The notes under the pieces were generated by a model. That model was not told the origin of the DNA. It ran no database searches and saw nothing but the letters and a program-made list of their open reading frames with translations. Of a stretch of DNA of 64,000 nucleotides, positions 3,376 to 64,000 are shown one piece after another. A program made the translations under genes and the position numbers. Positions within the stretch are counted from its first letter, which is position 1. Every line of letters begins with the position of its first letter. Source of the stretch: an uncultured bacterium (GTDB lineage Bacteria > Patescibacteriota > Gracilibacteria > Absconditabacterales > Absconditicoccaceae); assembly GCA_903953935.1 (NCBI GenBank), contig CAJBLF010000015.1:1039-65038 (forward strand). Direction: 5' to 3'.

Positions 3376-3376
3376 A

Positions 3377-5397: not shown

Positions 5398-5457
5398 CAG
5401 ATTTTTCTCACACTATCAAATAAAAAAAAACAACGGTTACTATTCTTTTTTTGTTTT

Positions 5458-6903: not shown

Positions 6904-6909
6904 ATCAAT

Positions 6910-6937
6910 CTTATAATTATTTTATATTAAATGTCAA
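6910..6937 (-). promoter_or_regulatory. Sigma70-like promoter, TTGACA-16 nt-TATAAG
   Basis: On the minus strand, TTGACA is at 6937-6932 and TATAAG at 6915-6910. Confidence 0.55.
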
Positions 6938-6964
6938 GTCTTTTTAATTTTATTTTAGGACAAG

Positions 6965-7315
6965 AAAAAGGAGTAGGTTGAGAGCTATGGAAACCATAGA
7001 TGAACCTGACTCCTTCATTGTTTGGCAGGTAGCTGCTATAGCAATACTGCCAGATGCGGATTTACCGCGATAATGATGATAATAAAAACCGGGCCGATTA
7101 GCGTTGCCCGTATTGCTCTTTTTCTAAGCTGCGGTCGGAACATTACAGATGGGAGCCTAATCCACCTGAACATCTGATATGGACGGCGTGCCTCGCATTG
7201 TGTTGTTCCCATTCCTCTCGTACTAGGGAACTTCATGATATGCATAATGATGCTTAGAAAAAGAATACTGATATCCAAGATGCCAAAGAACAATGAGAAT
7301 TTTGCTACCTAGGAT
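6965..7315 (-). ncRNA. Candidate structured RNA (about 300-350 nt) with a sarcin-ricin-loop-like hairpin; family unknown
   Basis: ORF-free and GC-richer than the flanks. Ends in a long hairpin (6970-7013) followed by TTTTTCTTG on the minus strand. The 5' end is not defined. Confidence 0.3.
7205..7231 (-). other. Hairpin GUUCCC-UAGUACGAGAGGAAU-GGGAAC mimicking 23S rRNA helix 95 (sarcin-ricin loop)
   Basis: 15 consecutive nt (CCUAGUACGAGAGGA, 7213-7227) are identical to the E. coli 23S SRL region. The loop length is the same and is closed by a 6-bp stem. No flanking rRNA similarity. Confidence 0.5.
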
Positions 7316-7376
7316 TGGTGTGTTATATATATTTTAAGCAATAAGACAAGAGATAGTTTTTCGCGTTTATTTCGCT

Positions 7377-8657: not shown

Positions 8658-8661
8658 TGGT

Positions 8662-8696
8662 TACAAATTAGAAATTGAAAATTAGAAATTATATAT
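8662..8696. repeat. Heptamer array TACAAAT TAGAAAT TGAAAAT TAGAAAT TATATAT next to the glyA start
   Basis: Read directly. Confidence 0.8.
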
Positions 8697-8808
8697 TAGT
8701 ATATAGATATTTGGTTTTTGCTATCAAGTAAAGATATAAAAAAACATAAATCATTGTTTATGATTTCACTACTACGTTGAATTTTTAAGAGAACTATCTT
8801 ATAGATAT

Positions 8809-10560: not shown

Positions 10561-10563
10561 ATC

Positions 10564-12369: not shown

Positions 12370-12518
12370 ATATATAATTCCACAAAAATAGATACCAACA
12401 TTTTCTCTTTTTTTCTCATGAGATTTTGTTATTTATACTTTACTATTAAAATAGTATGAATATTTAGAATATTACAAGATTATGTGTACTAGAAATCTTT
12501 TAATCTTTTAGTTGTAGT

Positions 12519-31429: not shown

Positions 31430-32002
31430 TTATACTATTGTCTTATAATATATCTTTTGTGCTTCTGTCGAAAATAATGTCCTTTTACTTACTCAAGATT
31501 TTTTGGTCGCATCATATATCTGAGGATATCCATTTTTGTTTCCTGCAAAAATAGCAACATGACCACAGAAATTTTTTTTATCAACAAAAAACAATACTGA
31601 TCCGGGAATAATATCAGAATTTTGGAGTATACCATTATCTCCGAAACGTAAGGTTTGTGTAGGCTTTTCTTTTTTAAACATATTTGGTGTCGCATACACT
31701 CATTCAAATGTTTTTTTTCCTGCGTCTGCAAATACTTTTTTTACAAAAGTATCGCAAACATATTTATTTCTACCTACTCAGTATCCATAATTTTTATGTG
31801 TCATCTCCTCTGCTCTGTTAAGAATTTCATCCATACTTTCTTCTACTTTTTGTTCGTTTTGTGCAATAATTTGCTCTCACAAATCACTTCGTTCTTTTTG
31901 TGATGCATCCAAGATATCTGCCACCTCTTTTTGATCATAGTTTAAAATTTCCATATACATCAACAACAAAATAAAACATCTGTGTATACGTTTTTGCTCC
32001 AT
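31430..32002 (-). CDS. NlpC/P60-family cell-wall hydrolase
   Basis: YGYgVGRNKYVCDTF (catalytic Cys) and GHVAIFAG (His). The frame reads through the TGA at 31493 to TAA 31430. Confidence 0.65.
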
Positions 32003-32537: not shown

Positions 32538-33284
32538 TTATTTTTTTATTTCATTTATAAAATTTTTATCTTCTTTCTCTTTTTTTAGTTTATTAATTCC
32601 ACTACTAATAGCACTTTTTCTCTTAGCTAACACATAACTGCGCAAATGATCCTGATAATATCTTGGATTGGGGAGAATAGCCGCAAGTAAAGCAGATTGG
32701 CTTTTGGTTAATTTATCTGCAGAAGTATCAAAGTAATAGTGTGCTGCTTGGTCGATACCGTAAATACCATCACCAAATTCTACGATATTGAGATAGACTT
32801 CAAGGATTCTTTGTTTGCTTCGTCAGATTTCCATAAGCACAGTAAAATAAGATTCTAATATTTTTCTAAAGATGGAACGACCTTGTCGAAGGAATAAATT
32901 TTTTGCCGTCTGTTGGGTTATAGTACTTCATCACACACTCACTGATTGATTTTTGATATTGATTTCTAGAGCATTTCGAATTGCATCGAAATCAAAACCA
33001 TAATGATTAAGAAATTTCTGATCCTCTCCTGCCATAACAGCATACATACCATAATCAGATATCGCCTCAATAGGCACCCAAGTATATTTGAGAACTATAG
33101 GTCTATTGTCTGCGACTTGTTCTATAAATCTCGTCACCATCAATGGCGTCATTCATGGATTCTGCCATTTGTAGAGAAGAACAAAATATATTGATGTAAT
33201 GAAAAAAATAAACAGTAAGGATCTAAATCGTCCTTCCAGTTTTCGAAACCAATATTCTAATCGTCGTGATAGTCTATGTCTCAT
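32538..33284 (-). CDS. mtgA: Monofunctional peptidoglycan glycosyltransferase (GT51)
   Basis: N-terminal TM helix, then [12 protein letters not shown], [15 protein letters not shown] (TGA-TGA at 32928-32933) and RKILE. Confidence 0.85.
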
Positions 33285-37623: not shown

Positions 37624-37853
37624 AACAAGAAAATAAAATAAGACGCCGAAACTTCCAAAAGAAGTTCAACGTCGTTTTTATCCAGCTTTGCTGAATAGGA
37701 ATTGTTTTGAAATTCCTATGTGACAAGCATGACCCAGCGGAATATTTTCGCTGGTTTTTTTGTTTTCGAGCATTTTATACAATTATAATTTGAATCTCAG
37801 TGAAATTTCCATACTAATTCGTTTATGAATTACGAACGCTTTGACCACAACAT

Positions 37854-37895
37854 ACCTAAACTAACAACTAACAACTTAGAGTGAACAACTAAAAA
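37854..37895. repeat. Heptamer array ACCTAAA CTAACAA CTAACAA CTTAGAG TGAACAA CTAAAAA in the priA-like leader
   Basis: Read directly. Confidence 0.75.
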
Positions 37896-37914
37896 GTCTA
37901 TTTTTCTTGTCAAT

Positions 37915-38904
37915 ATGAGCAAAGAGATTACTTCATATTTTTCGCAATTGGCCAGTGATGGTATAGAAAAATATCTCAATCAATGAAAGAAAATCTGAAT
38001 TCTTGTAAATAAAAAATGATATTCTGGGGGCATAATCTGTCACGAATGCTGAAGTATTCCAAAATGTAAAAATTGTTCGATAAGCATTAGCTATCATAAG
38101 CTATCTTCTTGAGACACTATCTGACTCTGTCACATCTGTAAGACCCAATACACTGTTCCCACAACGTGTCCTACCTGTCGTAGCACGAAAATCAAAGAAT
38201 TCTGATTGGGAACCCAAAAAGTCGCTGAATACCTAAAAAACCAATATGGAAAAGATGCCCTTATCATCGAATCAGAAACAGTTAATTCTCCTAATAAAAT
38301 CAAAAAAATCACAGAACAAATATCTCAACACCAAATCATTATCTGAACCTCTCTCCTCGCTACCCCGCCAAGCAAAATTAATTTTGACCTCGTCATATTT
38401 CTCAATGCAGACTTGGGATTAAATGTACCCGATTATACATCGGCAGAAAGAAATTTTTATTTTCTCTATGAAGCTTTTGTAAAACACCCTACAGCAAATT
38501 TTATTGTACAATCATTTAACCCAGATCAGTACAGCATTCGTAACGCATGTAGAATGAGTAAAGAAAAATTTTATGAAGAAGACAATATTTTTAGAAAGAT
38601 AAATTGATATCCTCCCTTTGGTGAACTTTGTATAATTTTATACAAAAACGAAATTGAAGAATCGCTCTATACCAAAGTTGATACCTTACATAAAGATCTC
38701 CTCTATCTCAAAGAAAAATATCAGTTGAAAGATATTGAAATCTATTCTACCCCACCACTGATTTACAAAATGTTTGGAAAATATAGATATAATATCATCC
38801 TAAAATGACCTACTGTTAGACAATTTATGGATATTGTTTTCACAAAATTGAATATAGCCAAGAAGGGATTTAAGATAGACTGGATGGCTGAAAGTATTGT
38901 ATAA
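37915..38904 (+). CDS. priA: PriA-like protein, C-terminal half only (helicase lobe 2, Cys-rich region, C-terminal domain)
   Basis: Aligns by eye to E. coli PriA from about residue 415 onward: ILVNKKgYSGGIICHECgSIPKCKNC..LCHIC..CPTCRS..FgLGTQKV, IIIgTSLLA. There is no Walker A/B region upstream, and motif VI (GRAGR) is not conserved. Confidence 0.7.
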
Positions 38905-39014: not shown

Positions 39015-39392
39015 CTATTTTTCTTTTTGTATCGTGTCACAAGGACATGGAACATTTGGTTCAAAGTATACAAAATAACCAGATGTCTTACCGTATCCCG
39101 TACGATCATTAGGAGCAAAAGCAACCATACGTAATTCTGTATGCTGCCGTATAAATGATGATAAATGGGTTCCGAAATCACTCTGGTGATACTTAAAGTA
39201 ATACACCCCATTACCAAAATCAGTAATTTCATCAGCTTGAATGGTAGGCGAAACCTTTTGAGGTAAGGAATCTACCACAACATATTGCTTTCCGTCTTGA
39301 CCGGTAATGGTTTTTGTATTCTGTTTTTGTTCGTTTCCACAACCAGCAACAATAATCATCATAATTATTGCTAAGAAAATTTTTGTTTTCAT
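39015..39392 (-). CDS. Lipoprotein, hypothetical (no TGA)
   Basis: MKTKIFLAIIMMIIVAGC lipobox. TAG stop. Confidence 0.6.
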   Translation of the reverse strand: MKTKIFLAIIMMIIVAGCGNEQKQNTKTITGQDGKQYVVVDSLPQKVSPTIQADEITDFGNGVYYFKYHQSDFGTHLSSFIRQHTELRMVAFAPNDRTGYGKTSGYFVYFEPNVPCPCDTIQKEK

Positions 39393-39509: not shown

Positions 39510-39854
39510 TTACCATGCGATAGCGATATATTCTTTTTTGACTATTGTCTTACACAAAGCTACCCGTCCGGCAATTGCCGCATTAGTCCCCAAAGCAGAT
39601 ACTGGTGGGGTTTCTGGAATTTTGAATCCATACAGATTTACAACAATGGTGCTGTTATCTTTTCTTATGTCTATAGGCAATGGATTTTCATATCCATACC
39701 TTTCGGAAGCATAGAACTGTTCTTTGAGTGTGTGCCAATTACCGTATTGTGTCGGCACGTACCCAGCATATTCTGGCAATTCATTCCAATGCTCCCCAAA
39801 TCCGAAATGAGAGGCAATTTCTTCTTTTGTTTCCATGTACTTACTTTTTTTCAT
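39510..39854 (-). CDS. Hypothetical protein (114 aa, no TGA)
   Basis: Intact ORF. Its start overlaps the upstream gene's end by 14 nt. Confidence 0.5.
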   Translation of the reverse strand: MKKSKYMETKEEIASHFGFGEHWNELPEYAGYVPTQYGNWHTLKEQFYASERYGYENPLPIDIRKDNSTIVVNLYGFKIPETPPVSALGTNAAIAGRVALCKTIVKKEYIAIAW

Positions 39855-40448: not shown

Positions 40449-42497
40449 ATGGAAGTCATCCAAAACGTAGTGTATGATACCGACTATAGCGCATATGTCG
40501 CTGACGGCGGATATCCACTCTTTCAAGCTTCTGCTACAACAGAAAAGCTATGATTTTTCGATAAAATATTATCCAACATATTTCCTAATCTTTATGCAAA
40601 AAAATGATGAACAACAAGTACAGGTAACGCAGGCAACAAAGCAAAAGATGTCTTACCTGAAAATGTCGCCATTAAAGATAAAACATTGAGGGATCAGGTA
40701 AAATACCTCCTAGAACTTCCCGATAACGAATATAATGACAAACTACTTACGAGCAAACTCAGACAATACATCTCCGAAACAGAAAAAGAATATGCATCTG
40801 TTATTAATGATTACAAGACTCATATAGCCCCTTCCTACTGGGAATTTAAATCCACACATTATAATGTGTCTGGAATCTTCTGAAAAACGTATTACGCACA
40901 AAGCTATCCTTCGTATATCGACGCACTTTGGACAAGAGATATTTTTGGTTTACATGCAAAACGAGATATGAGCCGATTCATTTTCCCTGAAGATGACGCA
41001 GCTATTCAGTCGATGTTAAAAAATAGAGCAACTCAACTGAAAGCAGAAGTAAAAGATGCCATGCAAAAAGGAATCACCCTCGATATGGAAATAGAACAGC
41101 AATATAGAGACGTAGAGATGATTAGAGAAAAACTTACCACACGCGAGGAAAGATATTTTGAAAATTCTTTCTACATCAATGTTTACGATGATGACGAAGA
41201 AAAACTCAAAGAAACGGGAAAAAAGATTGAACAAAAAATATCAGGATATGGAATAAGAATCAAAAGTGCAATCCAAAGAATGGATGAATGATTTGTTTCA
41301 TGATTACCACTCTGTACTGATGAACTTGCTATCAGCAGGAGCTCAGTCACTTCATCACTTGCTGGAGGATTTCCATTTATTTCCAACGATATGGTTAGTG
41401 ACACAGGAATTCTTTATGGCGTCAACTTACATACTGGATGATTAGTAATTTTTGATAGATACAATCAAAAACTACCAAACATGAATGGTGTTATACTTGC
41501 TACATCATGAGCTGGAAAATCCTTTACGGTAAAACTTGAGGTTTTGAGATATCTCATCAACGGTATCGATGTTATCATCATTGATCCAGAAAACGAATAT
41601 AAGGCACTCTGTCAGAAAGTAGGCGGTACCTATGTAAACATCGCAACAAATTCACAACAATATCTCAATCCTTTTGATATTCCGCCGAAAATAGAAGATG
41701 TAGAATATGGAAAATGAGATCTTTTGAGAAGTCAGATTATGAGTTTGATATGAATGATTCAGATTCTTATCTGAGGATGTACGCCAGAAGAAGAAGCATT
41801 GTTGGATAAGGCGCTACAAAATACGTATTCATTGAAATGATTTTCCCTAGATGCCGATAATTATGAAGGCAAACAACCACCAATCATGGGAGATCTTATG
41901 AATGTACTCGAAGGCATGGAAGGATGAGATAGACTAGCATTAAGATTAAGTAAATATGTAACCTGAACCTTTGGAAAAGTATTCAACAACTACACCAATA
42001 TCGACATCAACAATAGACTTACCGTAATAAGTATTAGAGATTTGGAAGATGCACTAAAAACTCCTGCCATGTTCAATGTACTCAACTGGATCTGGACTAA
42101 AGTAAGATCCCACAAGAAAAAGAGAATGCTCGCTTGCGATGAAGCATGGATTATGTTCCAAAATGAGACATCAGCAGAATTTCTTTTTGGACTCACTAAA
42201 AGAGCAAGAAAGTATGGATTATGAATCACCGTTATCTCGCAAGATATCGAAGATTTCGTAAAAAGCAAATACGGTAAACCAATCATATCCAACTGTGCTC
42301 TGCAAATATTATTAAAACAATCTACGACTTCGATCAGAGTATTAAATGAACTTTTGTGACTTTCTGATGCTGAGCAGAAAAGACTGGTCTCGGCAGGCAT
42401 ATGAGAATGATTGATTTTTGCTGGTAATCAGCATGTGGGAGTAAAAATACTAGCTTCCCCAGAAGAGAAAGCATTTATCACGACTGACGTAATATAA
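40449..42497 (+). CDS. virB4: VirB4/TraC-like type IV secretion ATPase
   Basis: Walker A GVILATSgAGKSFTVK, IIIDPENEY, Walker B MLACDEAW, GLgITVISQD. About 682 codons in one frame from ATG 40449 to TAA 42495. Confidence 0.75.
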
Positions 42498-42526
42498 CAA
42501 AACAACTACCAACGAATGAATTGTAC

Positions 42527-42558
42527 TTTACAGACTATAGCAATTTACAATAGTTCAT
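42527..42558 (+). promoter_or_regulatory. Conserved intergenic core motif, copy B (TTTACAGACTATAGCAATTTACAATAGTTCAT)
   Basis: 28/32 identical to copy C (55412-55443). Lies about 62 nt upstream of ATG 42613 and is flanked by short-period repeats. Confidence 0.45.
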
Positions 42559-42612
42559 CAACAAACCAAGTCCTAAATTATTCATTTTTACTTATTACTT
42601 ATTCATTCATTT

Positions 42613-43641
42613 ATGATGGAAGAAATGAAAGCAGTTGATACCAACACCAAAACTCAGCTTTCGCTTGCAGCAGCGTTGTTTTTTTCTCCATTGGTACAAA
42701 ACATACTCAACAAAAGCACATGGGATCTCACCGATAAAGATAAAGACTTCGTTCGTGGATACATCAAATTCTGATATATAACCCTCTTGTTTTGACTTAT
42801 TACCATTGCAACTTGAATTCTAAATTATGTATTTACTCTAAATATTCTAAGCGTCATTTACACGGTCAGTATATTTATTTTAATTTTCTTGTTGGTTATA
42901 AGTATAGTCAGTATTCTTTCTGATATTAGCCTCGTCAAATGAGGTGACTATCAGATTAAAACATATACTGTCGAAGGCAACAAAAAAGATATTATATTCA
43001 AATATCTCCCTCTCTACAACATCTATCTCCGATATAACATACATAGCTTTAATAAACCCAATCGATGGATTAAAGAGTCTCTCTTACTCTGGACTATTTT
43101 TTTCTTAGTAAGTATTTTGGGCAATGTTTTTCTCAGCAGCACTATGCTTATTATCATAATATTTAGAGTTGCAGCATTGATGTCTGATATCGATTTTCTC
43201 AATATGAATATCAAACAACATCTCAACGCTTTGTTTTTCAAAAATCCTGAAGAAATCATCTGATATATTACTGGGTCTGTTAGTTACCTTATAAAATCAA
43301 TCACCCATACGATATTTACCATGCAACCATATTCCCTAACAACAGAGATTACCAAGGAAAAGGAAGCATATAGCCATATCATTATTATCAGAGGCAATAC
43401 TTTTCTCATCATAGAATATATTCTCTGAATACTTTTGGCGAGTGGATTGATATATTTTATACACCCAAATTTTAGCATTCGAACGTATTATGCTAGCATA
43501 TGATTATTCATATCAAGATATGTAATTATGGCAGCACAACTTCAACATCTTCCCCATCTTCCTATCGCAAGAGAACTCTTGTTGCTTGTATATACTATCA
43601 TACCATACCTTAAAAGAAAATCTTTTATAAAAAATCCATAA
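42613..43641 (+). CDS. Polytopic membrane protein, hypothetical
   Basis: 342 aa with at least 6 hydrophobic helices. One frame with several TGA. The next gene's ATG begins 5 nt after its stop. Confidence 0.55.
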
Positions 43642-43645
43642 TAAG

Positions 43646-46306
43646 ATGACGTACAGACACAGACTGACTACTGGCATAGCAAAAATCATTGGTTCATGCA
43701 TGATGATGTTTTTTGCGCTTGTAGCATTTGCTCATGGACAAAATTGTACACTTCTCCCATGATGGAATCCTTCTGTTCTTATTGATGGACAATCCAAAAC
43801 CGGATATCAGGTACCTGAAGCAACATTTACTCAAAGTTGTACTGGATCAGTAGGCGTCATTACCTGTATAAGTGGTAGTATTGCTAACGGTAATGTCTTT
43901 AAATATCAATCATGCATTCCCCATACTCGAGCAAATTGTACCACACCTACGTGAGCTAATCATTTGGAATACAGAACATTATATAAGCTTGCTCAATCGA
44001 CATACACACAAACATGCCAGCAGTTAAGCCAAAATCTACAATGTCTCAATGGTATATTTACCTGATGAATAACGCCCAATCTCTTTACTCATGCGACATG
44101 CGTAGATCCCAACCGAACACAATGTATTGATGTTTGGACCAATAGTTACAAAGATCACGGTGAAATGCTTGTATGATATACCGCCAATCATCCATCTATA
44201 GGACAAATGTGTTCTACGATGCAAAAAACACTTACCTGCACCAATGGTACCTGGGCATGAAACGGAACCCAATGACAAGCTTGACTTGTTACCGGCTGTA
44301 CTAATCCACCAGTATTTTCTTGATGTCTAAATATCCGAACAAATACTACTCTTCCTCATTGATCGTCTTTGGGCGCATATCTCTATCCTAGTGGTATATG
44401 TAGCAACTTATATTATCCCCTTCTTTGTATCAATGGTTTGCGAAGCGGTGGAAATCAAATTTCATTATATTCATGATGCGCGAATACAAATACACAATCA
44501 TGTCCAAACATCATAACTAATTCTGGTACACTTCCTCATTTATCAGTAATCACCAAATATTCCCAAAAATTCGCTTTTGGAATGAATAATGATTATTGTA
44601 GTGATTTCGCTAAAATACTACAATGCACCAATGGCATCCGATCAGGTAATGTAGCAGGTCTCTTTACTTGATGCTTAAATATCGAATCATGAGCATGTTT
44701 AGATACTTCAACCAATATATATACACCAAATCTCCACTCTATAACAAAATATACTATTGCTCAAGCAACCTCTACCCAATCATGTGAAGAATCTCAAGTA
44801 CAATTTACCTGTGTAAACAGTGTACGATCTGGCGGTAATCCAAGTTCATATCCTTTCTCGTGATGTTGATGATGTAAACTTCCTTCAGCACGATGAGTCG
44901 CTGTCAGTGAATGACGACAAGGCTATTGATACTCCGTAACATGAGCGATATTTCCAAAAACATGTAATGATTATTCTACTTTACTTTCATGTACCAGTGG
45001 AATTTTGAATGGAAACCGACAAACCTACAAATATCCAAGTTCCCAATGTCAAAATAGTTGAGCGTTGGTTACTGGTATAGATCTCGCTATCGATTGATCA
45101 CCAGGAATTCCTGGACAGGAGAATATCAGTGGCGCTGTAATTGCCCAATGATCAAGTCCGCAAATGACTATTCTCATCCAAAATAAATGAACAGATCTCG
45201 TCAATCAACCTATCAATACTTCTGGGTTTCTCACCTGTAGACGAGCACAACAAAATCTTATCGTCTATACCTCTAAACCGATAACCAATTTTGTTGTTAA
45301 TCCTGGAACGAAAGTAGGAGTAAGTATCAGAATTAAATCACTCTTTACTCAAGCATTGGGTACAAAAACGCTAATATGCAAAATAGATACTAGCCTACTC
45401 TGAGGAAGTATTGTAGGCCCTGGTAATGATACACGATCAGGAACCTTTGAAATCGTACAAGCAGATAGATTTGATCTCGCTCTCAGTAAAAGTATTCAAA
45501 CAATAAGTCAAAATCTTGAGGCTGCTGAATGAGCCAAAGGTGTACAGTGAGTACAAAACTTTTTGTATAATAAAATCATGAATGTTCTTGTTCCTCTCAT
45601 AGTCATCATTGGAATTCTTTCTGCGATTCTCTGATTCTATAAGATTATGTTCTCCAGTGAAGATGCTGCTACTAAAGAATGAGTTAACTATATTATTTAT
45701 TGAGTGATAGGTATTATTGTAATTATGAGTGCTAAATTTATTGGACAAAATATTTTCGATTTACTCAATCCTCAAGGCGGTCAAATTCAATGATATACTA
45801 TAGCCAGTGGACTCTATGATAAGGTTATCTATCCCTTCATTAAATTTGCTATCTATCTTGTACTTGGTGCTATGTTTATCATCTTGATATCTCGTGTTAT
45901 CACCTTTCTCTTCGGTAGCGATACTGATGCACAGAAAAAGGCATGAACATTAATCTGATGGAATATAGTTTCTATGTTGATTATCATCTGAGCCAAACAA
46001 ATTGTTGAAGCTATCTATGGTAAACAAGATCAAGTAGTAAGAGATATAACTAATCTTGGGGATATCGGTTCATGAATTCTCGCCGATAGAAACATACCAA
46101 TTCTCTATCAAGTCATCAATTATGCACTTGGCATAGCATCACTAGTTATCCTGGTTATTATTATCATCCAGACCATTCAACTCCTCACGAAACCAGATGA
46201 TCCTGCGCAAATAAAAAGTATTAAGAATAGTCTGCTCTATATGCTTATAGGAATTCTTATTCTTGGAGCTGGTTATCTGATAGTCAACTTTGCTATTATC
46301 AACTAA
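43646..46306 (+). CDS. Secreted Cys-rich repeat protein with C-terminal multi-TM TrbC/VirB2-like region
   Basis: Signal peptide, then about seven repeats of roughly 55-60 aa built on ..C..NG..(S/T)G.. (CISGSIANGN, CLNGIFTgg, CTNGTWAgNG, CINGLRSGGN, CTNGIRSGNV, CVNSVRSGGN, CTSGILNGNR), then 4-5 TM helices. 886 codons. TAA at 46304. Confidence 0.55.
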
Positions 46307-46343: not shown

Positions 46344-46375
46344 AACGGTTGCCGAAAGGTCGCCGTTCTTCCTTT
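46344..46375 (+). terminator. Probable terminator
   Basis: AACGGTTGCC-GAAA-GGTCGCCGTT (imperfect stem) followed by a T-rich tract. Confidence 0.5.
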
Positions 46376-46486
46376 TTGGAATACCTTTCACGAATATGTA
46401 TCAGTTTTCATGTTTTTTATCTCGTGTTGCTTTTTTTGGGTAGATTTATATAAAGTAAATCACTTTATTTTTTGTTATTATAAAAA

Positions 46487-46711
46487 ATGCGTACGCTCTT
46501 GATTATCGTACTTATCCTTGTGTGAATAATATTTATAGGATCAGTGTTATTGATGTCTCCAAAATGATGACTATGATTGGGTATTGGCTGAATGGCTTGA
46601 TGAAATGAATACGGAAGCAAAAAAACTCTCGAAACGAAACTAAAGAAAGTTGCCCTCATTACTGGTGTCATCTTTGTAATCATATCGCTTGTTTTACCGT
46701 ATACCAAGTAA
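46487..46711 (+). CDS. secG: Preprotein translocase subunit SecG
   Basis: 74 aa with two TM helices around the Gly-rich loop SPKggLgLGIGgMAggNEYGSKKTLE. Seven TGA codons. Confidence 0.75.
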
Positions 46712-46714
46712 GCA

Positions 46715-48709
46715 ATGATCACCATTAAAATGAAAATAATAAGAGATATCCTTAGATATGTCTTTTTCTTGTCTTTATTCTGACGAGTATTGATTAGTAT
46801 CTATATATGATATCAATATGTCTGGTGATCCTCCACTCAAGTTAGCAACAAATGAGGAACTTTCGTAGAAGGTATTTTTGGGAATACTTCATATCTCCCC
46901 TACCTTCGCAACGATACCCAAAGTAATTTTTATCAATGATTGCTGTTTAATTCTTGTCTCAAACCCTCATACGATAAAAATGCTCCAACCTATGTGCCCG
47001 ATCTCTGTGCTATTACAACAAATGATAACCTAAATTATACTATCGCACTGAACAAGTGATTTATTCGATCTGATTGAACCCCCCTTTCTATAGAGGACAT
47101 CTATTTTACTTACAATGAAATCCTTCGTGGCAATATGCGAGACATCCCTAGCTTAAGCCAATATTCATCTCTGACGGTAGCCAAAGATACCAACAATACC
47201 ATTAAAGTAACTTTCCCTATCGCATCCCCATACAATAATCTTTTTTTCACTAATTATATCCTCCCTAAACATGTGTTAATAAATGCAGAACTTCGTGATT
47301 ATACATCATTATTTGCATTCAAACCCGTATACACCAACTGTTCTAATCTCGTCTCTCAATCCAATGATGAATACAGTCTTGTATTCAATCTTGTTAATTG
47401 CAATCAAACTAACCTTAACTTCTACCAGGTAAAGAATATGGTATCTTTCGATGCCTTTAAAAATACTATCAACAACTGATGAGATTCAATTATTGATGCG
47501 TATATTGGTGATGAAAACCTACGTTGATATCAAGCAAAAAAAATATTAACCAACCAGCTTATTACGGTTTTTTTCAATACTCGCTCTGATAGGCTCAGCG
47601 TAAGAGGAAGAAGAGTCCTTTGATGATTAATTAAACATAATTTTTATGATAGCTGATATGAAGACTATTTCAAAAAAAATGATGATGGTCTTTTTGATGT
47701 TTTCCAATCCACATGAGGTGATGTAAAAAACCTACTTAATCGTGATTATACCAATAATATGATTACCAAAAGCGATCTTGAAGATAGTGATATCAAACCA
47801 TTACCAAAATCTATCTCACTTCAATGAGAGAATCAAAAATTGGTATATTTCATAGAGACATGAGCATTAGTTTCTACAGAATTCACCTTCGATAAAGGAC
47901 ATGATAAAGTCACTATGGATTACAGATGAAAGTCATATACCCCCAAACACTTCGTCAAATGAGGTAAATCATGATGGTTTACGTTCTGAGTTACAGAAAA
48001 TAATTTTGCAAGCTGATTGAATAAATATAGTATTTATGGATACGATAAAAACAAAAAAACACTGCTTGCTTCCTTAGATATCTACAATGTAATACCTGAA
48101 ATCACTACGGAAGATGTTGTGGTAGGAGAACCCGTAAAATTTACTGTAATATATTATAGTGATTATATTAATGATTTCGTGATGACGAGAATGCAAAAGA
48201 TATTTAATGATGCTGATATCGGCCAAAACTTTACCTTCGAAAAAATCACTACCCCACAAGAACTACAATGAAGACTTATGGTTGGCGATTACGATCTCTT
48301 AATCAATACGGTAGATATGTGACTCAAAAAGGACCTCACCAAACTCTTTAGTACTGACAAATCCGATATCAATCCCTCACAATATCAGAACCAAAAATTT
48401 ACTACGCTACTCAAACAATATATTGCTGCTGATGAAAAAAGCAAAAAAAAATCTCTTATAGAGATTAATAGCATCTACTCTAAGGATATGCCTTTTGTTG
48501 TCCTTGGAAAAGAATATCTCACGATAAACTTCAAACCCGATATCATGGAAAAATTATTCGCTTCATGACATTACTGAGATATGGATGAATATGGTCGAAG
48601 AAATTACATCTATAAAAATCTTAAACTCGTAAATAATGTCCAAATTGATGGAAAAAGAATATGGAATTTTGATAACTTTTCAAAATTTTTGACTAATGCG
48701 ATAAAGTAA
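46715..48709 (+). CDS. Extracellular solute-binding protein, family 5 (OppA/DppA-like)
   Basis: N-terminal TM/signal. YTIALNKgFIRSDgTPLSIEDIYFTYNEIL is typical of SBP_bac_5. 664 codons in one frame. No permease gene is adjacent. Confidence 0.6.
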
Positions 48710-56207: not shown

Positions 56208-57290
56208 CTATTTTTTTTCGGTGTGATGTTGGTGATGAGGATCATGTGGATGATGTATATGGTGCGGATGATGTGCTTCGTGTGCATGTGTATGATGAGC
56301 ATGATGTACCGCTCTCTTCTTTCTTCTTTTTTTCTCCTGTGACAACAACATTATTATACCGCCAAAGAGGATAATAAGCATAACTACAACATATCAGATC
56401 ACCTTTCACATTCAAATTACCGTTTCCTGTTGTATCGTTCAATTAACCTGTGCTGGAGTATCGAAACTAAATGGCGTATTGTTGATGGTGAATTTTATTT
56501 TTAAATTGTATGGTTGAACCTCTCAAATGTTTTTGGTGATTACTAGTAATTCTCCATTGAGAATTTTACGAGATTCTACAAACGTATCATTGTATCATAA
56601 AATATTAGAGATATCTCATGTAATCATAACATCTTGTTCTACTGATGAGACATTGTGAATTTTAATCTGAACAACATAGGTATTGTCCGTAGTGTCTTTG
56701 TAAATTCTGACTTTGGGATCATTGGAAATATTTTCTCCGTCCGCATTACTAAACTCTTCCAACACTATTCCTGTCCCTTGCACGATAGTTTTAAGATTAC
56801 CGAGAAACACGTCTATAAATTTTGCTTTGCGCATAATAATAGTAAACCCTGATATTGTATTTGGTTTATCTTCTACCAAAGAATATACTATACATCCATG
56901 AAACAATCCATTCATGCCCGTGGCATATAACAGTTTAGCCTCTCTTTTGACCGTTTCTCATCCTTTCAAAGCAACAATTTGACCACTATTGGTCACATAT
57001 TTTCCAAACTTTTCTACATCATCATCACTAAGACATGCTTTATTCTGCTGTTGATCATTGGTAAACGTACCATCGATAAATCATACTTTTACCTTAACGG
57101 ACGCATCTGAAGCATTTGTTATAGTATAACAAATCCCTGTCGTGACACCTGAATCTAGATGATAAGTCAGCGTACTTTCTTTAGTAGTACAAAAATCGAG
57201 AGAAATGTTGGCTAAATTAGCAGCATGTGTTCGTCCAACAAATAGCCCTACAAGTGGCAATGTCCAGAGAAATTTTTTCATAGCGAACAT
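56208..57290 (-). CDS. Secreted surface protein with C-terminal TM anchor and His-rich cytoplasmic tail
   Basis: Track ORFs at 57081 and 56616 and the tail share one frame, linked by TGA. Signal peptide MKKFLWTLPLVGLFVGRTHA. C-terminus YVVVMLIILFGGIIMLLSQEKKRRKKRAVHHAHHTHAHEAHHPHHIHHPHDPHHQHHTEKK. TAG at 56208. Confidence 0.6.
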
Positions 57291-57396
57291 AAAAAAATAA
57301 AGAACTATGTGATGTGATTTTTTATAGGAAACTCCATTTCATATTCAACTCAAATATACATTTGATATTTCATGTATTCTTTGGATAGTCGAGTAT

Positions 57397-57422
57397 AAAA
57401 AAATCTCCAGAATACCTGGAGA
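57397..57422 (-). terminator. Rho-independent terminator
   Basis: TCTCCAG-AATAC-CTGGAGA, with a T7 run on the minus strand. Confidence 0.75.
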
Positions 57423-57431
57423 CCTATCGTT

Positions 57432-58076
57432 TTATAGATGTTTTTTTGTCTGGTATTCTTCCCATTCCATAATCATAGTACCGAATGATCTTTCAAACAG
57501 TATAATATACTGTCCGTTTTCTTCAACAATACCCCCATTATAGACAACGTTTATACGTTTCTCAGGAAACAGCGTACACAATGCAAATGCCATACCCAGC
57601 TCGATATGTGTCGCATACAGTCGCTTAGGATGATACTCTATAGGAATAATTTCCTTTCGCATCATCTCTTCAAGCTTCTTGAACCATGCATTATATCCTC
57701 CGAACTTTTCATCAAAAATCCTCTGCAAATGCAGTATATTCAAAGGATCATCAGCGGAATATGCAATCATATGAAACAGCTTCTCCGGATGTAGATAAAT
57801 ATCTACGAATTTCACTCCGATATCAAAGTGAGAACCTTCGGATTTTCCATCATAAAATACGTGTGTTTCTGCAGCAGCAATATTTACTGTAGTGTTTTGT
57901 ACACATATTTCATGTCCGCTTCCGGATTGGTTTGTATCCAAATGAGGAAGATGGACTTTATATCCTTGTGATTCTAACTTTTGTTTGTATGCTACCAATT
58001 CCTGTCGTGTAGCATCATCTGCTTTTCTTACCGAACAGATGATAAATACCGATTTTTTTTCTGTTTTTGGTTCCAT
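57432..58076 (-). CDS. Nucleoside 2-deoxyribosyltransferase/DNPH1-like protein (no TGA)
   Basis: VFIICSVRKADDATRQELVAYKQKLESQGYKVHLP and SEGSHFDIG resemble the Rcl/DNPH1 pattern (CGSIRGG.., S.G.G.E.G). A second, degenerate half has HIELGMAFAL. Confidence 0.4.
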   Translation of the reverse strand: MEPKTEKKSVFIICSVRKADDATRQELVAYKQKLESQGYKVHLPHLDTNQSGSGHEICVQNTTVNIAAAETHVFYDGKSEGSHFDIGVKFVDIYLHPEKLFHMIAYSADDPLNILHLQRIFDEKFGGYNAWFKKLEEMMRKEIIPIEYHPKRLYATHIELGMAFALCTLFPEKRINVVYNGGIVEENGQYIILFERSFGTMIMEWEEYQTKKHL

Positions 58077-58109
58077 ATATTTCTATGTTTGTGTTTGTTA
58101 CTATTAGTG

Positions 58110-60488
58110 TTATTTTACTTTTATTGTGATTGTTCCATCAATAGTTGGCTGATCTTTATATACTACTGCAGACCTTACCAAATATGTACCTGCTTGGGCA
58201 TACACATGCGTTATTGAAGCACATTCTTGTCTGGTATTACATGTCATTGTTTTCCCATCACCAAAATCCCAACGGATCTCTGATGGCAATCCATTGAATT
58301 CTATAGAAAATCCTACTCTATCTCAGATGTTCGCTACTTGCGCTGGATAATCGGGTATACTTATGATCAATTTCTGAATTGCTCTTTTGACTATAATATC
58401 ATTTTCTGGTGATACAGAAATCTCACGACCTTTTTTTGTTTTGATAATAACTACTGGATGGTAGTTTCCGTTATTGGTCTTGGTATCATATCTATAGGTA
58501 TGAGAAATAATAGATTCGGAAGAATTTTTGATCATCGATCCTGTTCCATCGCCAAAATCCCACGTGAATGACACCAATTCATCACCAGTATCGTTGAGTA
58601 CTGTCGTCGATGCATCAAATTTCACGGTAAATGGATCCATACCTACAGTATCAGGTGTCACCACTAATTTTCCTACAATATCGGCTCTATTGATACTAAC
58701 TGGGAGTTTTGTTTCTGTCTTAGCACCACTCTGCTTATCTTCCACTACTATCAAAACCTCATGGTCTGCACTATCATCAATAGTAAATTCAAACGTATTT
58801 CCATCTACAGAGATTATCTGCTTAGCATCTACAAAAATCTTCTTGGTAGCTGTCGGTGTATTTGGCACAATCTGATTAATCTGAATTTTGATGATAGTAG
58901 GAATCTCTGTCAACACCAATTCTCCTGAAACCATTGAGACAATACCTTGAGTACCTACTTTCTGAAATTGTGGTGATTGAGATGACTTAAAATACGTATC
59001 GTAATTTATCTGAAAATCACTCACTCCAATTTGCACATCATCACTCTCACATTGTCCTTGTTTATCATCTTCTGTGATGAAGGTATTTTGGATTGCATAT
59101 AAACCTGCACTATTAAATTGATAGCTAAATGTTCCGTTATTGTTTTTTATCGTATCAATAGATACATCCTTCTTATTTCTATCAAGCACATCAAACTGAT
59201 ATGTTGTTATATTTATAGTTTTATCAAAGAAATTTGTAGTCACCGTATAATTTTTTCCCTCACTTTTGGTGACAATAACTTCACATACAGGGACATCTGA
59301 TTGCTCTACCCTAACAGGAAATGTATAAATATACTCATTGAGCGCTGGAAACCTAACAAATACATTATATAATTTTGCCTCATTGTATACAAAGGTAGTC
59401 GATACATTATTTTGCTTGTCTGGCGTACCATCACCATCAAAATCCCAGATAATGTTATAATCACTAAGTCCGAGATCTTTGAATACTGCACTTGCATCAA
59501 ACATCACTTTACTTGGGGCTTTGCCCAAAACCATTTCTGTCTTTGCATCATTGAAAGATAAATCCATTTTGGTTGGACTTATAGTTATTTCAGAATCGAA
59601 TATGATAGATCATCCAGAAAATGTTTTTTGAAGTCTTTCTGATGTAGGGATGTTTGTATAACTAGTATCTAAATTGAGGAGATATTCGCCTTTTTTGAAA
59701 TACACGCAATATCCATCAAATTCTGACGTGGTAAAATTCAGAGTAAGTTTTTGTCCATTTCCACAGTCCAAAAGTATCTCAGTAAAATTTGCCTGACCGA
59801 GTGAAGGAAGTATTTGTGAATTGAAGTAATTGGTATTGAGCTTGTAGTACAAAGTTGCCGGTGCTATGAGATTGAGATTTGGCGTGGTGCGGGTATATTT
59901 GGTCCCATCCTTCAATTGTAGGTATGGCATAATTAATTTGTCACTGTCTAGAATATTATCCACAGAAAAATTACGCACCATGGTGATTACTCTCGCTCAC
60001 AAAACAATGGCGAAAATAAAAATCAAAAATCAAAACATAGTACCTATGATATATCATATTTTTGATTTATTCTTGACGCTAATCAATCTATAGAGATTGG
60101 TAACAAACAATCCTATACCCAAAAACGTCAACAGTCCAAAAAACAATACAGAAAATGTCTGCAACAGTGTTTTTGTAGTATTGGGATCCAATCCTACACT
60201 TGTCAACTGAGTTGGATTATTGATAAGATTGTAGAATACGAGTGCTAATCACCCTACAACGAACATAAACAATACACCACATCAGATTAGCACGGTCTTT
60301 ATAGACATCTTTGAGGTAGGTTTGGTAATATTTGCTGTCTGTTGGGGACGGACGGGAGCTTGCTGTACCGGCGCTTGTTGAAATGGAAATTGCGGAGCTG
60401 GTGGTGGTGTTCCCATTGGTGGCATCTGAGGATTTGCCTGAGGTTGTACTCATTGAGGAGAAACTGTTTGTGGAATCTGATCGACCAT
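58110..60488 (-). CDS. Membrane protein with Pro/Gln-rich N-terminus, TM helices and PKD-repeat ectodomain
   Basis: 792 codons in one frame from ATG 60488 to TAA 58110. PKD signatures IWDFDGDGTPD, TWDFGDGTG, RWDFGDGKT. N-terminus MVDQIPQTVSPQgVQPQANPQMPPMGTPPPAPQFPFQQAP. Confidence 0.7.
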
Positions 60489-60722
60489 TTCATAAAACTA
60501 ATGATAAATACTCATTAACAGATACTGCATTATTTCAGCTTTGAACTTTATGCTTTCGGCTAAAATATAACATTTGAGGGGTAAAATTCAACAGTAGTTG
60601 TATGGTAGTTGTGTGTCACCTACCACATCATTTTTTTCTAAAAAAACAAGTTAAAATTACCGCATATCTTGGAATATTTGCAAATCTTTTTGTTGGGCTA
60701 TATAATAGTAGATAAGTACTTT

Positions 60723-63700
60723 ATGTTACTCAAAAAACCAATCATGGAACAAGAAAAGCAAGCATTCTTTCCAAAACTCATTAGCATTCTCTTGATAGCT
60801 ATGGGAATCTTTCTAGGTTTCTACGCCTTTTTTGCTAATGCTACTACGCGGACTTTGCCTGGATGAGCAACATGGAACAATAAGAACTATCTCACATGAT
60901 TGTTTCGAGACAACGCCCCAACCACTGGCGATATTATCACTGCACTGTATGGAAGTGGCGCAGAAGCAACTGCTTACACCAAAAATCGATCTTCAAATGT
61001 TTGCGATCCTGCTGCCATGGTAGTAGATTATATATATCCTGGGCCAGATACTATTCCACAATCATTGATACATAACACCATATACGTACTAGCATCATGA
61101 AATTATGTATTATCTCAGTGAATTACCACAGACACATCTTGTGTTGCTATAATTGGTAATTGAAACGTAAAATTGTATTCAAGTGGTTATCTCGATGCTA
61201 TGATTTGGATGGATGTACAACCAAATGCGATATTTGACAACATTGATATAGATGGGACAAATAATGGTTTATGAGTCAACCATACTCCTAATAATTATTG
61301 AATAAAGTATCAGGGTTGAACACATTCACACACAATAAACAATATAAAAGCACATCATAATAATTTTTGAATATATTATAGTGATGCTACTCGTGACACC
61401 ATAAGCAATAGTCAAATTTACAACAATTCTTACTGAATAGTTTTTGATGGAGCTTCTTACAACAATGTAAATACTAGTCAAATATATAACAATAGTGAGT
61501 GAATATATTTAGAAAATATATCAAACTATAATACTATTGCCGATGCTCATATTTACAATAATGATAATTGAATAAACATATCTAGTGGCCATAATACCAA
61601 CAACAATATACACACATCTCAGATTCATAACAATCAAGATAAATGAATTTATTTAAACAGTTGATCTAGCAATAGTATTGTTGACTCTCAAATTTACAAT
61701 AATGATAATTGAATTTATTTAGACAATAGTACCAATAACAACATCAATAATGCTATTATTTATAACAACAATGGCAATTGAATACTTTTCAATAATTCCT
61801 CATATAACAGCATCAACAATTCTCAAATCTATAATAGCCAAAATGGAATATATTTAAATTCTAGTCCAAACAACATTATCAACAATTCTCAAGTCCATAA
61901 TAACAACAATGGAATACCTTTATTTACCAATTCCAATAATAATATATTACATAAGGTAGAATCATATAATAATAATTTTTGAATTTGGATAAGCAATTCT
62001 ACTAATACTAGATATTATGATACCCTCTTATTATTTTGAAATTGAACTAATATTGTTGGACCTTGAACAGCAATCATTTCATGATCTAATAGTGACATTA
62101 CAGGTTCTATGCTTTCATTAAACGATTGAGTATTAAGTACCTGATGAACTATGGATTGCTCTCGAATCACCAATCCCACTACCTGATGAATATATTTACA
62201 GACATGAGATTTATGTACTAGCACATGACAAGTAGTATCATGGATATGAAACACAGCGAACAATTATAGATACTGAAGCAATGTACTTGCACAGAAACGT
62301 CCTGCACACCGAAGCTGATGAACTATCGCATTATATTGAATACTATGATCAGACTATGATACCGGCAGATATATCTGACAATACTGACCAATCGGATGAA
62401 CATTCAACATCAACAACAATACTGGTATAACATATACAACGAATGTTACTTTTTACAATACCGTTACTTGAGGAAGCAGCGTAACAGTTACTGATCTAGA
62501 ACATTGGGAGTTTATGAGCGAAAGTTATTGACCATCATTTAGTTATCTTCTTTACTGAGGCACAACCTGATTAAAAACAATTTATGCAGATTTTTCTGGC
62601 ACAAATTGAACCTTTATGGCCATGGATACTATCATTTATGATATTCCTGATACTACTCCGAATCAATTTAACTTTACTGCAATGACTGGAGTAGAATTAA
62701 ACACATTATATACATCTAATGTTATTACCATAACTTGAATAACTCCATGATTTTTTACTTGAGTATCTATAAATACTTGAAGTTTATTTAAAAATTGAAT
62801 CAATATTAATCAATCTTGAACTGGTTGAAATGGAGATCAATTTTATATAACATTACAATCTAGTGATACCTATTACACAAAAACAATTTCAACGATAAAT
62901 ATATGATGAGTAACTGGAAATTTTGAAATAGAGACTATTATGGATACTCCCATTCCTCCTTCTTGAGGTTGAATGGTACGAGAAAACAATAATTTTATTG
63001 ATAGTACTTTTTGGTCACAATCCCCAACATCTTGAGATATTATAATTGCTTTATATGGTATAAATACTTGAGACGAAACAGCATATACACAAAATCGATT
63101 TAACAACAATTGTAATCCAGCATATATAAACCTAGTATATAAGGATCCATGAACAAACACGCTACCCCAACAACTAAGTAATAATACCATCTATATCCTC
63201 AATTCTGGTAATTATACTATAAGTTATGTTAATTGATTATGGATGAGTGGATGTACTGCTATAGTTTGATCCGGTAATGTCACTATATATAGTACGGGAA
63301 CATTAAATTCTTATGCTATGATTTATGCTAGCTGAAGACAAAACAATATCATAGACAACATAATGATAGACTGACTATCCAATGGAAGTGGAGGTACTCA
63401 CACAAAAAACAATCACTGAATTTATTTAGAACATTCTTCAGGCAATAGTATCAACAATTCTCAATTCTATAATAATGGTAGTTCATTATCCTTGTACAAT
63501 AGTTCAAACAATAGCATTAGCAATTCTCAAGCTTACAATAATACGTATTATTGAATATATATTTGAAATAGTTCAAATAATAGCATTAGTTATTCTCAAG
63601 CTTACAACAATAATTCTGCCTGAATATACCTCTATAATTGCTCAAATAATAGTATTAGCTACTCTCAATCATACAACAACATAAATGATTGAATATATTT

Positions 63701-64000
63701 ATCAACTAATTCGAACAACAATAATATAAACAATTCTCAAACTTACAATAACACTAGTGCTTGAATACATTTAGTATCTAGTTCAAACAACAATAGCATA
63801 AATAACTCTCAAGCTTATAACAACATGAGTTATTGAATATATTTGGTAGCTAGTTCAAGTAATAATAGTATAAACAACTCTCAATCCTATAATAATCCAT
63901 ATTGAATATATCTACAGTCTAGTTCAAATAATAATAGCATAAACAACTCTCAATTCTATAATAATCTCTATTGGATTTATATAACTAGCTCTACGGGTAA
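60723..64000 (+). CDS. Giant right-handed beta-helix (PbH1-type) repeat surface protein, 5' part; runs off the right edge
   Basis: N-terminal TM/signal. Repeats of about 22-24 aa of the form S.NNSI.NSQ.YNN..gIYL. More than 1090 codons in one frame with no TAA or TAG. The minus- and plus-strand track ORFs inside it are artefacts. Confidence 0.7.

Follow-up and report, generated by a model that had tools for sequence, protein, structure and literature searches.

Chromosomal type IV secretion systems (T4SSs) that lack a relaxase and are accompanied by VirB2-like pilins are already known from Patescibacteria, where they were described between 2020 and 2025. A T4SS-like region with homologs of VirB4, VirB6 and VirB2 was reported in Saccharibacteria in 2020 (PMC7427843). 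In Southlakia epibionticum, a T4SS cluster and a pilin gene array are essential for epibiotic growth, and since the cluster contains no recognisable coupling protein or relaxase, a non-DNA role was proposed for it (PMC10633639). In a survey of 3,035 genomes published in 2025, 18 of 20 classes had VirB4, which formed a clade nested in MPF_FATA; VirB2-like pilins lay close to virB4 in 1,135 assemblies, and only 103 genomes contained relaxases; in Gracilibacteria, VirB6 homologs were reported to be absent, "suggesting extreme sequence divergence", and VirB3 and TrsD to be rarely linked to virB4 (PMC12102498). A review of the same year singled out the Patescibacteria systems as unique among those of monoderms in being essential and possibly pilus-producing, and proposed a pilus-like conduit for exchange with the host (PMC12857230). 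Here, we describe a locus of three genes from an uncultured member of the Absconditabacterales (SR1), encoding a VirB4-type ATPase, a polytopic membrane protein and a protein in which three pilin-like hairpins are fused to a large ectodomain. The locus lies at positions 40449-46306 of a 64-kb stretch (34% GC) of contig CAJBLF010000015.1 (assembly GCA_903953935.1, positions 1,039 to 65,038), hereafter the window, to which all coordinates and all statements of absence refer. The covalent three-pilin fusion, its variable ectodomain and the modular orphan partner are apparently undescribed. We did not find such a fusion, a stepwise ectodomain or an orphan modular partner in the text or searchable supplement of the four papers cited above, of which the 2025 survey gives VirB2 matches in its supplement by Pfam coverage alone, with no lengths or fusions.

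When TGA was read as sense, open reading frames (ORFs) of at least 100 amino acids covered 109,515 nucleotides, the longest having 1,119 amino acids, whereas translation table 11 gave 37,320 nucleotides and a longest ORF of 434 amino acids. With TGA translated as glycine, three co-directional genes were found on the forward strand exactly where a sequence-only reading of this DNA had placed them: virB4 (gene 1, 40449-42497, 682 amino acids, 18 in-frame TGA codons), gene 2 (42613-43641, 342 amino acids, 7 TGA) and gene 3 (43646-46306, 886 amino acids, 35 TGA), with 60 in-frame TGA codons in total. The gap between genes 1 and 2 is 115 nucleotides and that between genes 2 and 3 is 4 nucleotides, so that the ATG of gene 3 begins at the fifth base past the stop of gene 2, again as claimed. 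The meaning of TGA in this lineage was checked directly by alignment to the VirB4 of Thermoanaerobacter (Protein Data Bank, PDB, entry 4ag5), which uses the standard code. Of the 12 TGA codons of virB4 that could be aligned, six fell on glycine, among them the one encoding Walker A residue G354, and none on tryptophan; TGA is thus a glycine codon here. Taken together, the ORF coordinates, TGA counts, spacing and alignment confirmed that observation in every detail.

Gene 1 encodes a VirB4-type T4SS ATPase of the monoderm CD1110 or MPF_FATA-like kind. Its product scored 364.3 bits (E=1.3e-108) against NF045971, the NCBIfam model of CD1110 VirB4-like conjugal ATPases, which has a cutoff of 325, and stayed far under the cutoffs of the other NCBIfam VirB4, TraC, TrbE and CedB models. 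Pfam returned P-loop_TraG (96 bits) as well as DUF87 and AAA_10. In addition, the C-terminal 360 residues (amino acids 319-678) aligned end to end with 4ag5 (E=1.1e-48). Both nucleotide-binding motifs could be read from the sequence: Walker A, ATSGAGKS (amino acids 351-358, 41499-41522, +), and the Walker B region, MLACDEAW (amino acids 560-567, 42126-42149, +), which aligns with VLVVDEAW of 4ag5. The VirB4/TraC-type assignment made earlier therefore stands, and since the protein exceeds the curated CD1110 cutoff, it is more than a HerA/FtsK-like ATPase, the outcome that the sequence-only reading had named as grounds for dropping it. Across 42 loci, the identity of gene 1 to its orthologs ranged from 59 to 90%. 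The 80 best genomic relatives of this VirB4 are nearly all labelled as Candidate Phyla Radiation (CPR) lineages, and one contig is labelled Oceanicoccus.

The pilin-like features are concentrated in the C-terminal part of the gene 3 product. The protein starts with a signal peptide or N-terminal anchor (amino acids 1-30, MTYRHRLTTGIAKIIGSCMMMFFALVAFAHG, 43646-43735, +), with a hydrophobic segment at amino acids 11-29. All minimal orthologs begin with a comparable leader (MKK, a hydrophobic stretch and A-x-A), and we infer that it is cleaved. Apart from this segment, six transmembrane (TM) helices were found, all within amino acids 625-886 and arranged as three hairpins. Hairpin 1 (amino acids 625-712, 45518-45781, +), when searched alone, matched the Pfam T4SS_pilin family with 29.9 bits (cutoff 26.6) and TrbC under the cutoff, with 22.1 bits; hairpin 3 (amino acids 800-886 plus the stop codon, 46043-46306, +) matched T4SS_pilin with 28.9 bits. 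Hairpin 2 (amino acids 715-800, 45788-46045, +) had no Pfam match on its own and was identified by hhalign only, which aligned it to hairpin 1 with a probability of 96% (E=5e-9) and to hairpin 3 with 92% (E=7e-7). The whole protein reached 31.0 bits against PF18895 (cutoff 26.6) and 19-22 bits against PF04956 (cutoff 27.9). Among 18 divergent orthologs, T4SS_pilin was matched by all (best 2e-18), TrbC/VirB2 by nine (best 2e-10) and TrbL/VirB6 by none. These results show that the C-terminus is pilin-like, of the VirB2/TrbC type, as had been proposed. Lysines are present in the loops within the hairpins, consistent with the N-out, loop-in topology of VirB2, and the linkers between hairpins are conserved (e.g. 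NLGDIGSGILAD). Searching PDB sequences with the triple-hairpin profile, among them VirB6/TrwI of R388, gave no match.

Two further domains separate the leader from the hairpins. The first is a Cys-repeat ectodomain (amino acids 34-468, 43745-45049, +) made of seven tandem repeats of ~58 residues with four cysteines each, for which Cys periodicity and repeat alignment gave the pattern C-x25-31-C-x8-C-xNG-x15-19-C. The second is an immunoglobulin (Ig)-like beta-sandwich (amino acids 469-620, 45050-45505, +). Neither had a meaningful Pfam match; for the Ig-like domain there was none at all. In an AlphaFold2 (AF2) model headed by P0106, a correctly translated ortholog with 64% identity, and built on an alignment that holds Gly-to-Trp artefacts, the Ig-like domain was the most confident part (predicted local distance difference test, pLDDT, 80-90) and the Cys repeats formed small beta units (pLDDT ~65-82). 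Foldseek matched this model to beta-sandwiches of RhoGDI, PapD-like/ASH and NBR1 at E ~1e-4 to 1e-3, over the Ig-like domain only. The earlier description of a pilin-like fusion protein thus holds and can be made more specific: three tandem hairpins stand behind a Cys-repeat and Ig-like ectodomain. With 886 residues, three hairpins and an ectodomain, the protein is not a small single-hairpin pilin, and its minimal orthologs of ~310 amino acids still carry three hairpins.

Unlike its neighbours, gene 2 could not be linked to any described family. Kyte-Doolittle analysis detected four strongly hydrophobic segments in its product. The AF2 model of homolog P0001 (91% identical, in a sequence bearing seven Gly-to-Trp translation artefacts) is all-helical, with 6-7 long helices and a pLDDT of 75.7, which is consistent with the at least six TM helices claimed before. 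The protein can be divided into an N-terminal module (amino acids 1-108, 42613-42936, +), with a conserved motif (KTQLSLAAALFFSPLV...FVxGYIKFGY) followed by two TM helices, and a C-terminal polytopic extension (amino acids 109-342, 42937-43641, +), which contributes 4-5 more membrane helices, evolves faster and is missing in some lineages. Median identity was 77% for the N-module and 58% for the remainder. An exhaustive search with a hidden Markov model (HMM) against 1.84 billion representatives retrieved 250 clusters, essentially a single family of ~300-350 amino acids. In six related loci (L020, L036, L041, L049, L051 and L052), the N-module stands alone, as a protein of 105-155 amino acids with two TM helices encoded directly 3' of virB4; in hmmsearch against the ORFs of related loci, these short forms matched only the first ~105 positions of the family profile.

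Searches for a known relative of gene 2 were negative throughout. Pfam and NCBIfam, TrbL/VirB6/PrgH included, gave nothing at E<=1; a Pfam scan of 51 diverse family members revealed no recurrent family; and VirB3/PrgI/TraL profiles matched neither gene 2 nor the family members scanned, namely these 51 and four short forms among those examined. The family profile returned only noise from PDB sequences, Foldseek with the P0001 model gave unrelated proteins against PDB (best E=2.9) with no fold likeness to the solved VirB6 (R388 TrwI), and hhalign found gene 2 unrelated to the pilin hairpins of gene 3 (0.3% probability). We therefore rejected its assignment to VirB6/TrbL, VirB3/PrgI or any known family. 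Of the profile searches proposed by the sequence-only reading, those for VirB4 and the pilin families gave matches, and that for VirB6/TrbL did not. What gene 2 shares with VirB6 is size and position (342 amino acids, 6-7 modelled helices, 115 nucleotides 3' of virB4, kept in ~33 loci). The likeness of the full-length protein to VirB6 is superficial, as is that of the N-module to VirB3 in size, two-TM topology and adjacency to virB4, and homology is supported in neither case. Gene 2 thus appears, from these searches, to be an orphan, lineage-restricted polytopic membrane protein, whose N-module is the part that travels with virB4.

To place the trio in context, we compared 84 loci, 80 from GTDB species representatives retrieved with VirB4 as the query and four from metagenomes, in which ORFs were called with code 25 and scored with HMMs built for this analysis. 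Synteny across related genomes, a check that the sequence-only reading had proposed, was found: a triple-hairpin gene lies just 3' of virB4 in 45 of the 84 loci, all of them from the closer VirB4 relatives (SR1/Absconditabacterales), and in none of the more distant Gracilibacteria loci (VirB4 ~40-55% identical). Between the two genes, gene 2 is present at full length in 33 loci (a count that misses the copy in L005) and in its short form in 6, whereas in L033, L034, L038, L044, L046 and L048 the triple-hairpin gene comes right after virB4 and the retrieved region contains no homolog of gene 2. As order and orientation of the trio are kept in dozens of genomes, the arrangement is not due to chance.

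The 45 orthologs of gene 3 differ mainly in their ectodomain. Twenty loci encode hairpins only (~310-390 amino acids), eight encode hairpins and the Ig-like domain (~300-440 amino acids), and 17 encode hairpins, the Ig-like domain and 1-7 Cys repeats (500-980 amino acids). The Ig-like domain is therefore present in 25 of 45 orthologs, and the number of Cys repeats ranges from 0 to 7, the window protein having the maximum. Median identities were 94% for the VirB4 ATPase domain, 80% for the hairpins, 54% for the Cys repeats and 53% for the Ig-like domain, a gradient that fits a conserved machine core with a variable exposed surface. Because of this stepwise variation between lineages, the ectodomain is a candidate host-recognition domain.

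A different arrangement was seen in two SR1-labelled loci (L016 2346-6488 and L027 12073-16534), in which the gene after virB4 encodes a secreted protein of 1,123-1,148 amino acids and is itself followed by two or three tandem genes for classical single-hairpin pilins of 85-133 amino acids. The secreted protein contains an HSMGG motif that appears to resemble the nucleophile site of alpha/beta-hydrolases. We considered these loci as an unfused version of gene 3 and rejected this idea, as they represent a different T4SS subtype with a giant secreted protein and separate pilins.

The genes around the trio are housekeeping genes rather than mobility genes. Upstream are genes for a SpoU methylase, Dus and the C-terminal half of PriA, and downstream are those for SecG, a protein resembling SBP_bac_5 (just under the Pfam cutoff), an M50 peptidase, RF1 and a CTP synthase-like protein, the last two being named after their annotated counterparts in the syntenic locus L001 and not by a scan of the window. 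The order of the flanking genes is common to relatives whose gene 2 is merely 41% identical, and the GC content of the trio does not differ from that of its flanks. In line with the earlier claim, no relaxase, coupling protein, VirB8/9/10 or integrase was detected in Pfam and NCBIfam scans of ~30 window proteins, comprising most of those within ~25 kb of virB4 (the scans excluded the genes at 666-15074 and some evident housekeeping genes). The same scans did not recognise TrsD, PrgI/VirB3, PrgH/VirB6 or a VirB1-like hydrolase near virB4 in the window. A tRNA scan found no tRNA gene, and thus no suppressor-type tRNA-Gly(UCA). The lack of relaxase, coupling protein and integrase genes, together with the housekeeping setting, argues that the locus belongs to the native core machinery and is no mobile element, and the heavy use of TGA as glycine and the conserved synteny likewise agree with the previous view that it is native to the recoded lineage and not a recent import.

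At the 3' end of the locus, 38 nucleotides past the stop of gene 3, there is a terminator-like hairpin with a T-rich tract (46344-46378, +). It was spotted by eye and folds at -15.2 kcal/mol (z=-2.66 relative to shuffled sequences); the consensus terminator scan made no call. It possibly marks the end of an operon. The promoter scan returned fewer promoter-like sites than in shuffled sequence.

Several genes of the neighbourhood deserve a separate description. Gene 3 and the SBP_bac_5-like gene are separated by secG (46487-46711, +; 74 amino acids, Pfam SecG 44.9 bits), which has the same position in relatives such as L001 and L002; a map of longest ORFs prefers a spurious antisense ORF of 86 amino acids (46465-46725) in its place. 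The half-PriA gene (37825-38904, +; 359 amino acids; also L001 4061-5113 and L003 6606-7625) matches only residues ~410-723 of the ~732 of PriA, corresponding to helicase lobe 2, the Cys-rich region and the C-terminal domain (6dcr, E=3e-20). No N-terminal half with Walker A/B is found upstream, where the neighbour is an aldose epimerase, and the gene is kept 1-2 genes upstream of virB4 in many Absconditabacterales loci. Also upstream of virB4 are genes for a lipoprotein-like protein of 125 amino acids with a ...VAGC lipobox (39015-39392, -) and for a protein of 114 amino acids (39510-39854, -). We rejected the interpretation of this region as a fragmented pseudogene, as the alignment shows two small genes split by true TAA/TAG stops; given these stops, the single ORF of 346 amino acids in L001 is probably a read-through artefact.

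Farther away, a PilB/GspE-type secretion ATPase (17140-18723, -; Pfam T2SSE 348 bits) is encoded ~22 kb upstream of virB4 and presumably belongs to a type IV pilus or machinery resembling a type II secretion system, which is also typical of CPR bacteria. An NlpC/P60- or C92-like peptidase (31430-32002, -; weak, at 21-25 bits, under the cutoffs) and a monofunctional peptidoglycan transglycosylase (32538-33284, -; 170 bits) are encoded 7-9 kb upstream of virB4. By analogy with the VirB1-type functions of other systems, they are possible candidates for cell-wall remodelling partners. Downstream, a group of genes probably forms a surface-protein cluster (56208-63998). It consists of a 360-residue protein that has a signal peptide, a TM helix at its C-terminus and a His-rich tail (HHAHHTHAHEAHHPHHIHHPHDPHHQHH; 56208-57290, -), a 792-residue protein with PKD domains (58110-60488, -), and a protein of more than 1,118 residues that runs past the window (60642-63998, +), with 68 TGA codons, NNS/NSQ-rich repeats and a beta-helix-like look.

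Most public homologs of genes 2 and 3 have been translated with code 4, in which TGA is tryptophan. For instance, P0097 is the window gene 3 product apart from 35 Gly-to-Trp changes at TGA codons and three other substitutions, and tryptophan makes up ~4% of code-4 entries vs 0.5% of the correct translation. The named homologs are all annotated as hypothetical proteins, except for one mis-annotated as an MnhB antiporter subunit. For recoded CPR lineages, this systematic artefact can make profile searches and predicted structures less reliable. It places dozens of false tryptophans where glycine belongs, which may be the reason that surveys find components to be "absent" from this class.

We are highly confident about the identity of the locus: the trio is the native chromosomal core of a Patescibacteria-type T4SS, a type descended from MPF_FATA, in its Absconditabacterales form. 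When the mechanism is included, we favour this explanation by a modest degree. According to it, the gene 3 product would be a membrane protein exported by Sec, with its N-terminus outside and the lysine-bearing loops of its hairpins facing the cytoplasm. Its core would consist of three covalently joined and mutually diverged VirB2-like hairpins, from which the Ig-like domain and the disulfide-rich repeats face outward. VirB4 would dock at the membrane via gene 2, possibly with the help of other, unlinked parts, and would spend ATP on building a short fibre or stalk, associated with lipid, from the pilin modules. The covalent fusion would make the distinct pilin paralogs co-assemble in a fixed stoichiometry of 1:1:1, and the outer face of the stalk would present the variable ectodomain to the host cell. 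In the epibiotic lifestyle, such a structure could be a conduit for attachment and transfer, and not a conjugation pore. By analogy with the described systems, the chances of a non-conjugative role in host interaction seem to us evenly balanced, and polymerisation of the fused pilins is speculative.

Several points weigh against this explanation. No VirB6, VirB3/PrgI, VirB8, VirB1 or type IV coupling protein (T4CP) was recognised, so that, by canonical standards, the machinery visible in the 64-kb window lacks parts. Gene 2 has no homology or fold match, so its role is deduced from position and topology. Confidence in the AF2 model is low for the hairpins (pLDDT ~50-65), and neither Foldseek nor the PDB profile search recovered a pilin structure. 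Polymerising VirB2 pilins provide no precedent for three linked, non-identical hairpins on a 600-residue ectodomain, and the function is extrapolated from Saccharimonadia, which are another class. Finally, the operon, and with it co-transcription of the trio, is putative.

The alternative that survives best, which we regard as possible and on the unlikely side, keeps the same T4SS and assigns its parts differently: the triple-hairpin module would be a VirB6-like platform or channel (~300 amino acids, six TM helices, VirB2-like repeats and an "extended" ectodomain), and the N-module of gene 2 a VirB3-like anchor of VirB4. It would account for the VirB6 homologs reported as absent from Gracilibacteria, where extreme divergence was suggested (PMC12102498), and the minimal orthologs of gene 3, with 310-345 amino acids, a signal peptide, six TM helices and a place beside virB4, have the size and position of VirB6. 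Moreover, homology to the pilin VirB2/CedA1 has been reported for the N-terminal part of VirB6/CedA (PMC9905601), and ancient, distinct hairpin paralogs at a fixed 1:1:1 ratio are more in keeping with a defined membrane complex than with a homopolymer. The short forms of gene 2, by size, topology and adjacency to virB4, resemble VirB3. However, the orthologs match pilin families in every case and TrbL/VirB6 in none of 18, the profile search of PDB sequences that include R388 VirB6/TrwI came back empty, and neither gene 2 nor 51 members of its family showed a VirB3, PrgI or TraL signal. Large hydrophilic domains are known from "extended VirB6" proteins, but there the domain is central or C-proximal (PMC12857230), whereas here it is N-terminal.

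Both this alternative and the mechanism favoured above bear on a broader and tentative idea, which we think rather unlikely to hold, namely that the divergent VirB2-like pilins of CPR bacteria are non-equivalent subunits that co-assemble 1:1:1 and not interchangeable host variants. The six-helix unit would then be either the block of a hetero-pilin fibre with a host-binding domain or a VirB6-like channel made from VirB2 repeats. If true, the fusion would be a "Rosetta stone" for the divergent VirB2-like pilin arrays, which are essential in Southlakia; and if the channel is built of VirB2 repeats, it would be a living intermediate supporting a common ancestry of VirB2 and VirB6.

More doubtful is the view of the locus as a bacterial analogue of the archaeal Ced/Ted system, that is, a domesticated minimal T4SS importing DNA from attached hosts, as a source of nucleotides or for recombination. 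A role as a DNA-uptake or effector conduit had already been put forward, as an inference, by the sequence-only reading. The parts correspond to those of Ced/Ted (a VirB4-like ATPase, a protein with 6-7 TM helices, a VirB2-like pilin and no relaxase), which is a DNA importer (PMC9905601); CPR bacteria lack de novo nucleotide synthesis (PMC10633639); and the gene for the C-terminal half of PriA is conserved just upstream of virB4 in many loci. We nevertheless consider this view improbable. The ATPase belongs to the bacterial CD1110 family and scores only 42.9 bits against CedB (NF041017, cutoff 700) and 26.8 bits against CedD (cutoff 600), no nuclease, HerA or Rad50 genes are adjacent, and the half-PriA lacks the helicase lobe with Walker A/B, and synteny may be all that connects it with the T4SS. 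In Southlakia, deletion of comEC abolished competence without affecting viability while the T4SS is still essential (PMC12857230); what makes it essential there is therefore something other than taking up DNA through ComEC, which weakens the analogy further.

That the trio is the decayed, non-functional remnant of an integrated conjugative element (ICE) from a Gram-positive donor is hardly credible: its best VirB4 family match is indeed to a Clostridioides ICE-type conjugal ATPase, and T4CP, relaxase, VirB6 and VirB8 were not found among the scanned window proteins, but all three ORFs are intact and kept across dozens of species with VirB4 at 59-90% identity, the housekeeping-gene neighbourhood is stable, 60 in-frame TGA glycine codons and a flank-like GC content are unlike a recent import from a standard-code donor, and there is no integrase found and no tRNA gene in the window (flanking repeats were not searched for).

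The preferred reading, a native T4SS core in its SR1 form, matters because few machines have been shown to be indispensable to CPR bacteria living as epibionts, and chromosomal T4SSs are among them. Of the forms found here, that of SR1 is the most compact, consisting of a motor, a single orphan membrane protein and a single protein derived from pilins, which makes it an attractive minimal system for structural work. The three-pilin fusion constrains models of how CPR "pilins" assemble, as it implies distinct paralogs, a fixed stoichiometry and termini located outside, and it bears on the reading of the essential pilin arrays in other CPR bacteria.

Compared with known systems, the locus resembles archaeal Ced/Ted (PMC9905601) in being a minimal, chromosomal and domesticated T4SS derivative in which an ATPase resembling VirB4 is combined with a polytopic protein and a VirB2-like pilin, and which has no relaxase. 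It differs in its ATPase, which falls far short of the CedB and CedD cutoffs, and in that no sequence link was found between gene 2 and CedA/VirB6. With the monoderm CD1110/MPF_FATA systems (CTn2, pCF10, pIP501) it shares a VirB4 above the CD1110 cutoff, the C-terminal domain of which aligns with 4ag5. Unlike those systems, it has no recognised relaxase, T4CP (PcfC/VirD4), PrgH/VirB6, PrgI/VirB3, PrgL/VirB8 or PrgK/VirB1, it is not located on a mobile element, and it includes a pilin, which they lack. As regards the pilins themselves, gene 3 has the signal peptide, two-helix hydrophobic hairpin and Lys-containing loop of the VirB2/TrbC/TraA families (PF04956, PF18895). These are single-hairpin proteins of ~70-130 amino acids that form homopolymers, whereas gene 3 joins three diverged hairpins to an ectodomain of ~600 residues.

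The closest counterparts are the T4SSs of other Patescibacteria, such as TM7x and Southlakia epibionticum ML1. As in these, the VirB4 is of the monoderm, MPF_FATA-like kind, a PF18895 pilin is encoded near virB4 although monoderm T4SSs normally have no pilins, and the locus is chromosomal and native, has neither relaxase nor coupling protein in its vicinity and belongs to an ultra-small bacterium that depends on a host. In contrast to Saccharimonadia, where VirB6, VirB3/PrgI, TrsD and VirB1 are found near virB4, these components are unrecognisable here and an orphan membrane protein stands in their place. The genome is recoded, with TGA read as glycine, and the locus consists of only three genes, compared with the Southlakia cluster of SEML1_0006-0019. 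Finally, where the other systems have pilin arrays of small genes, this one carries three hairpins in a single polypeptide, together with an Ig-like domain and seven Cys repeats.

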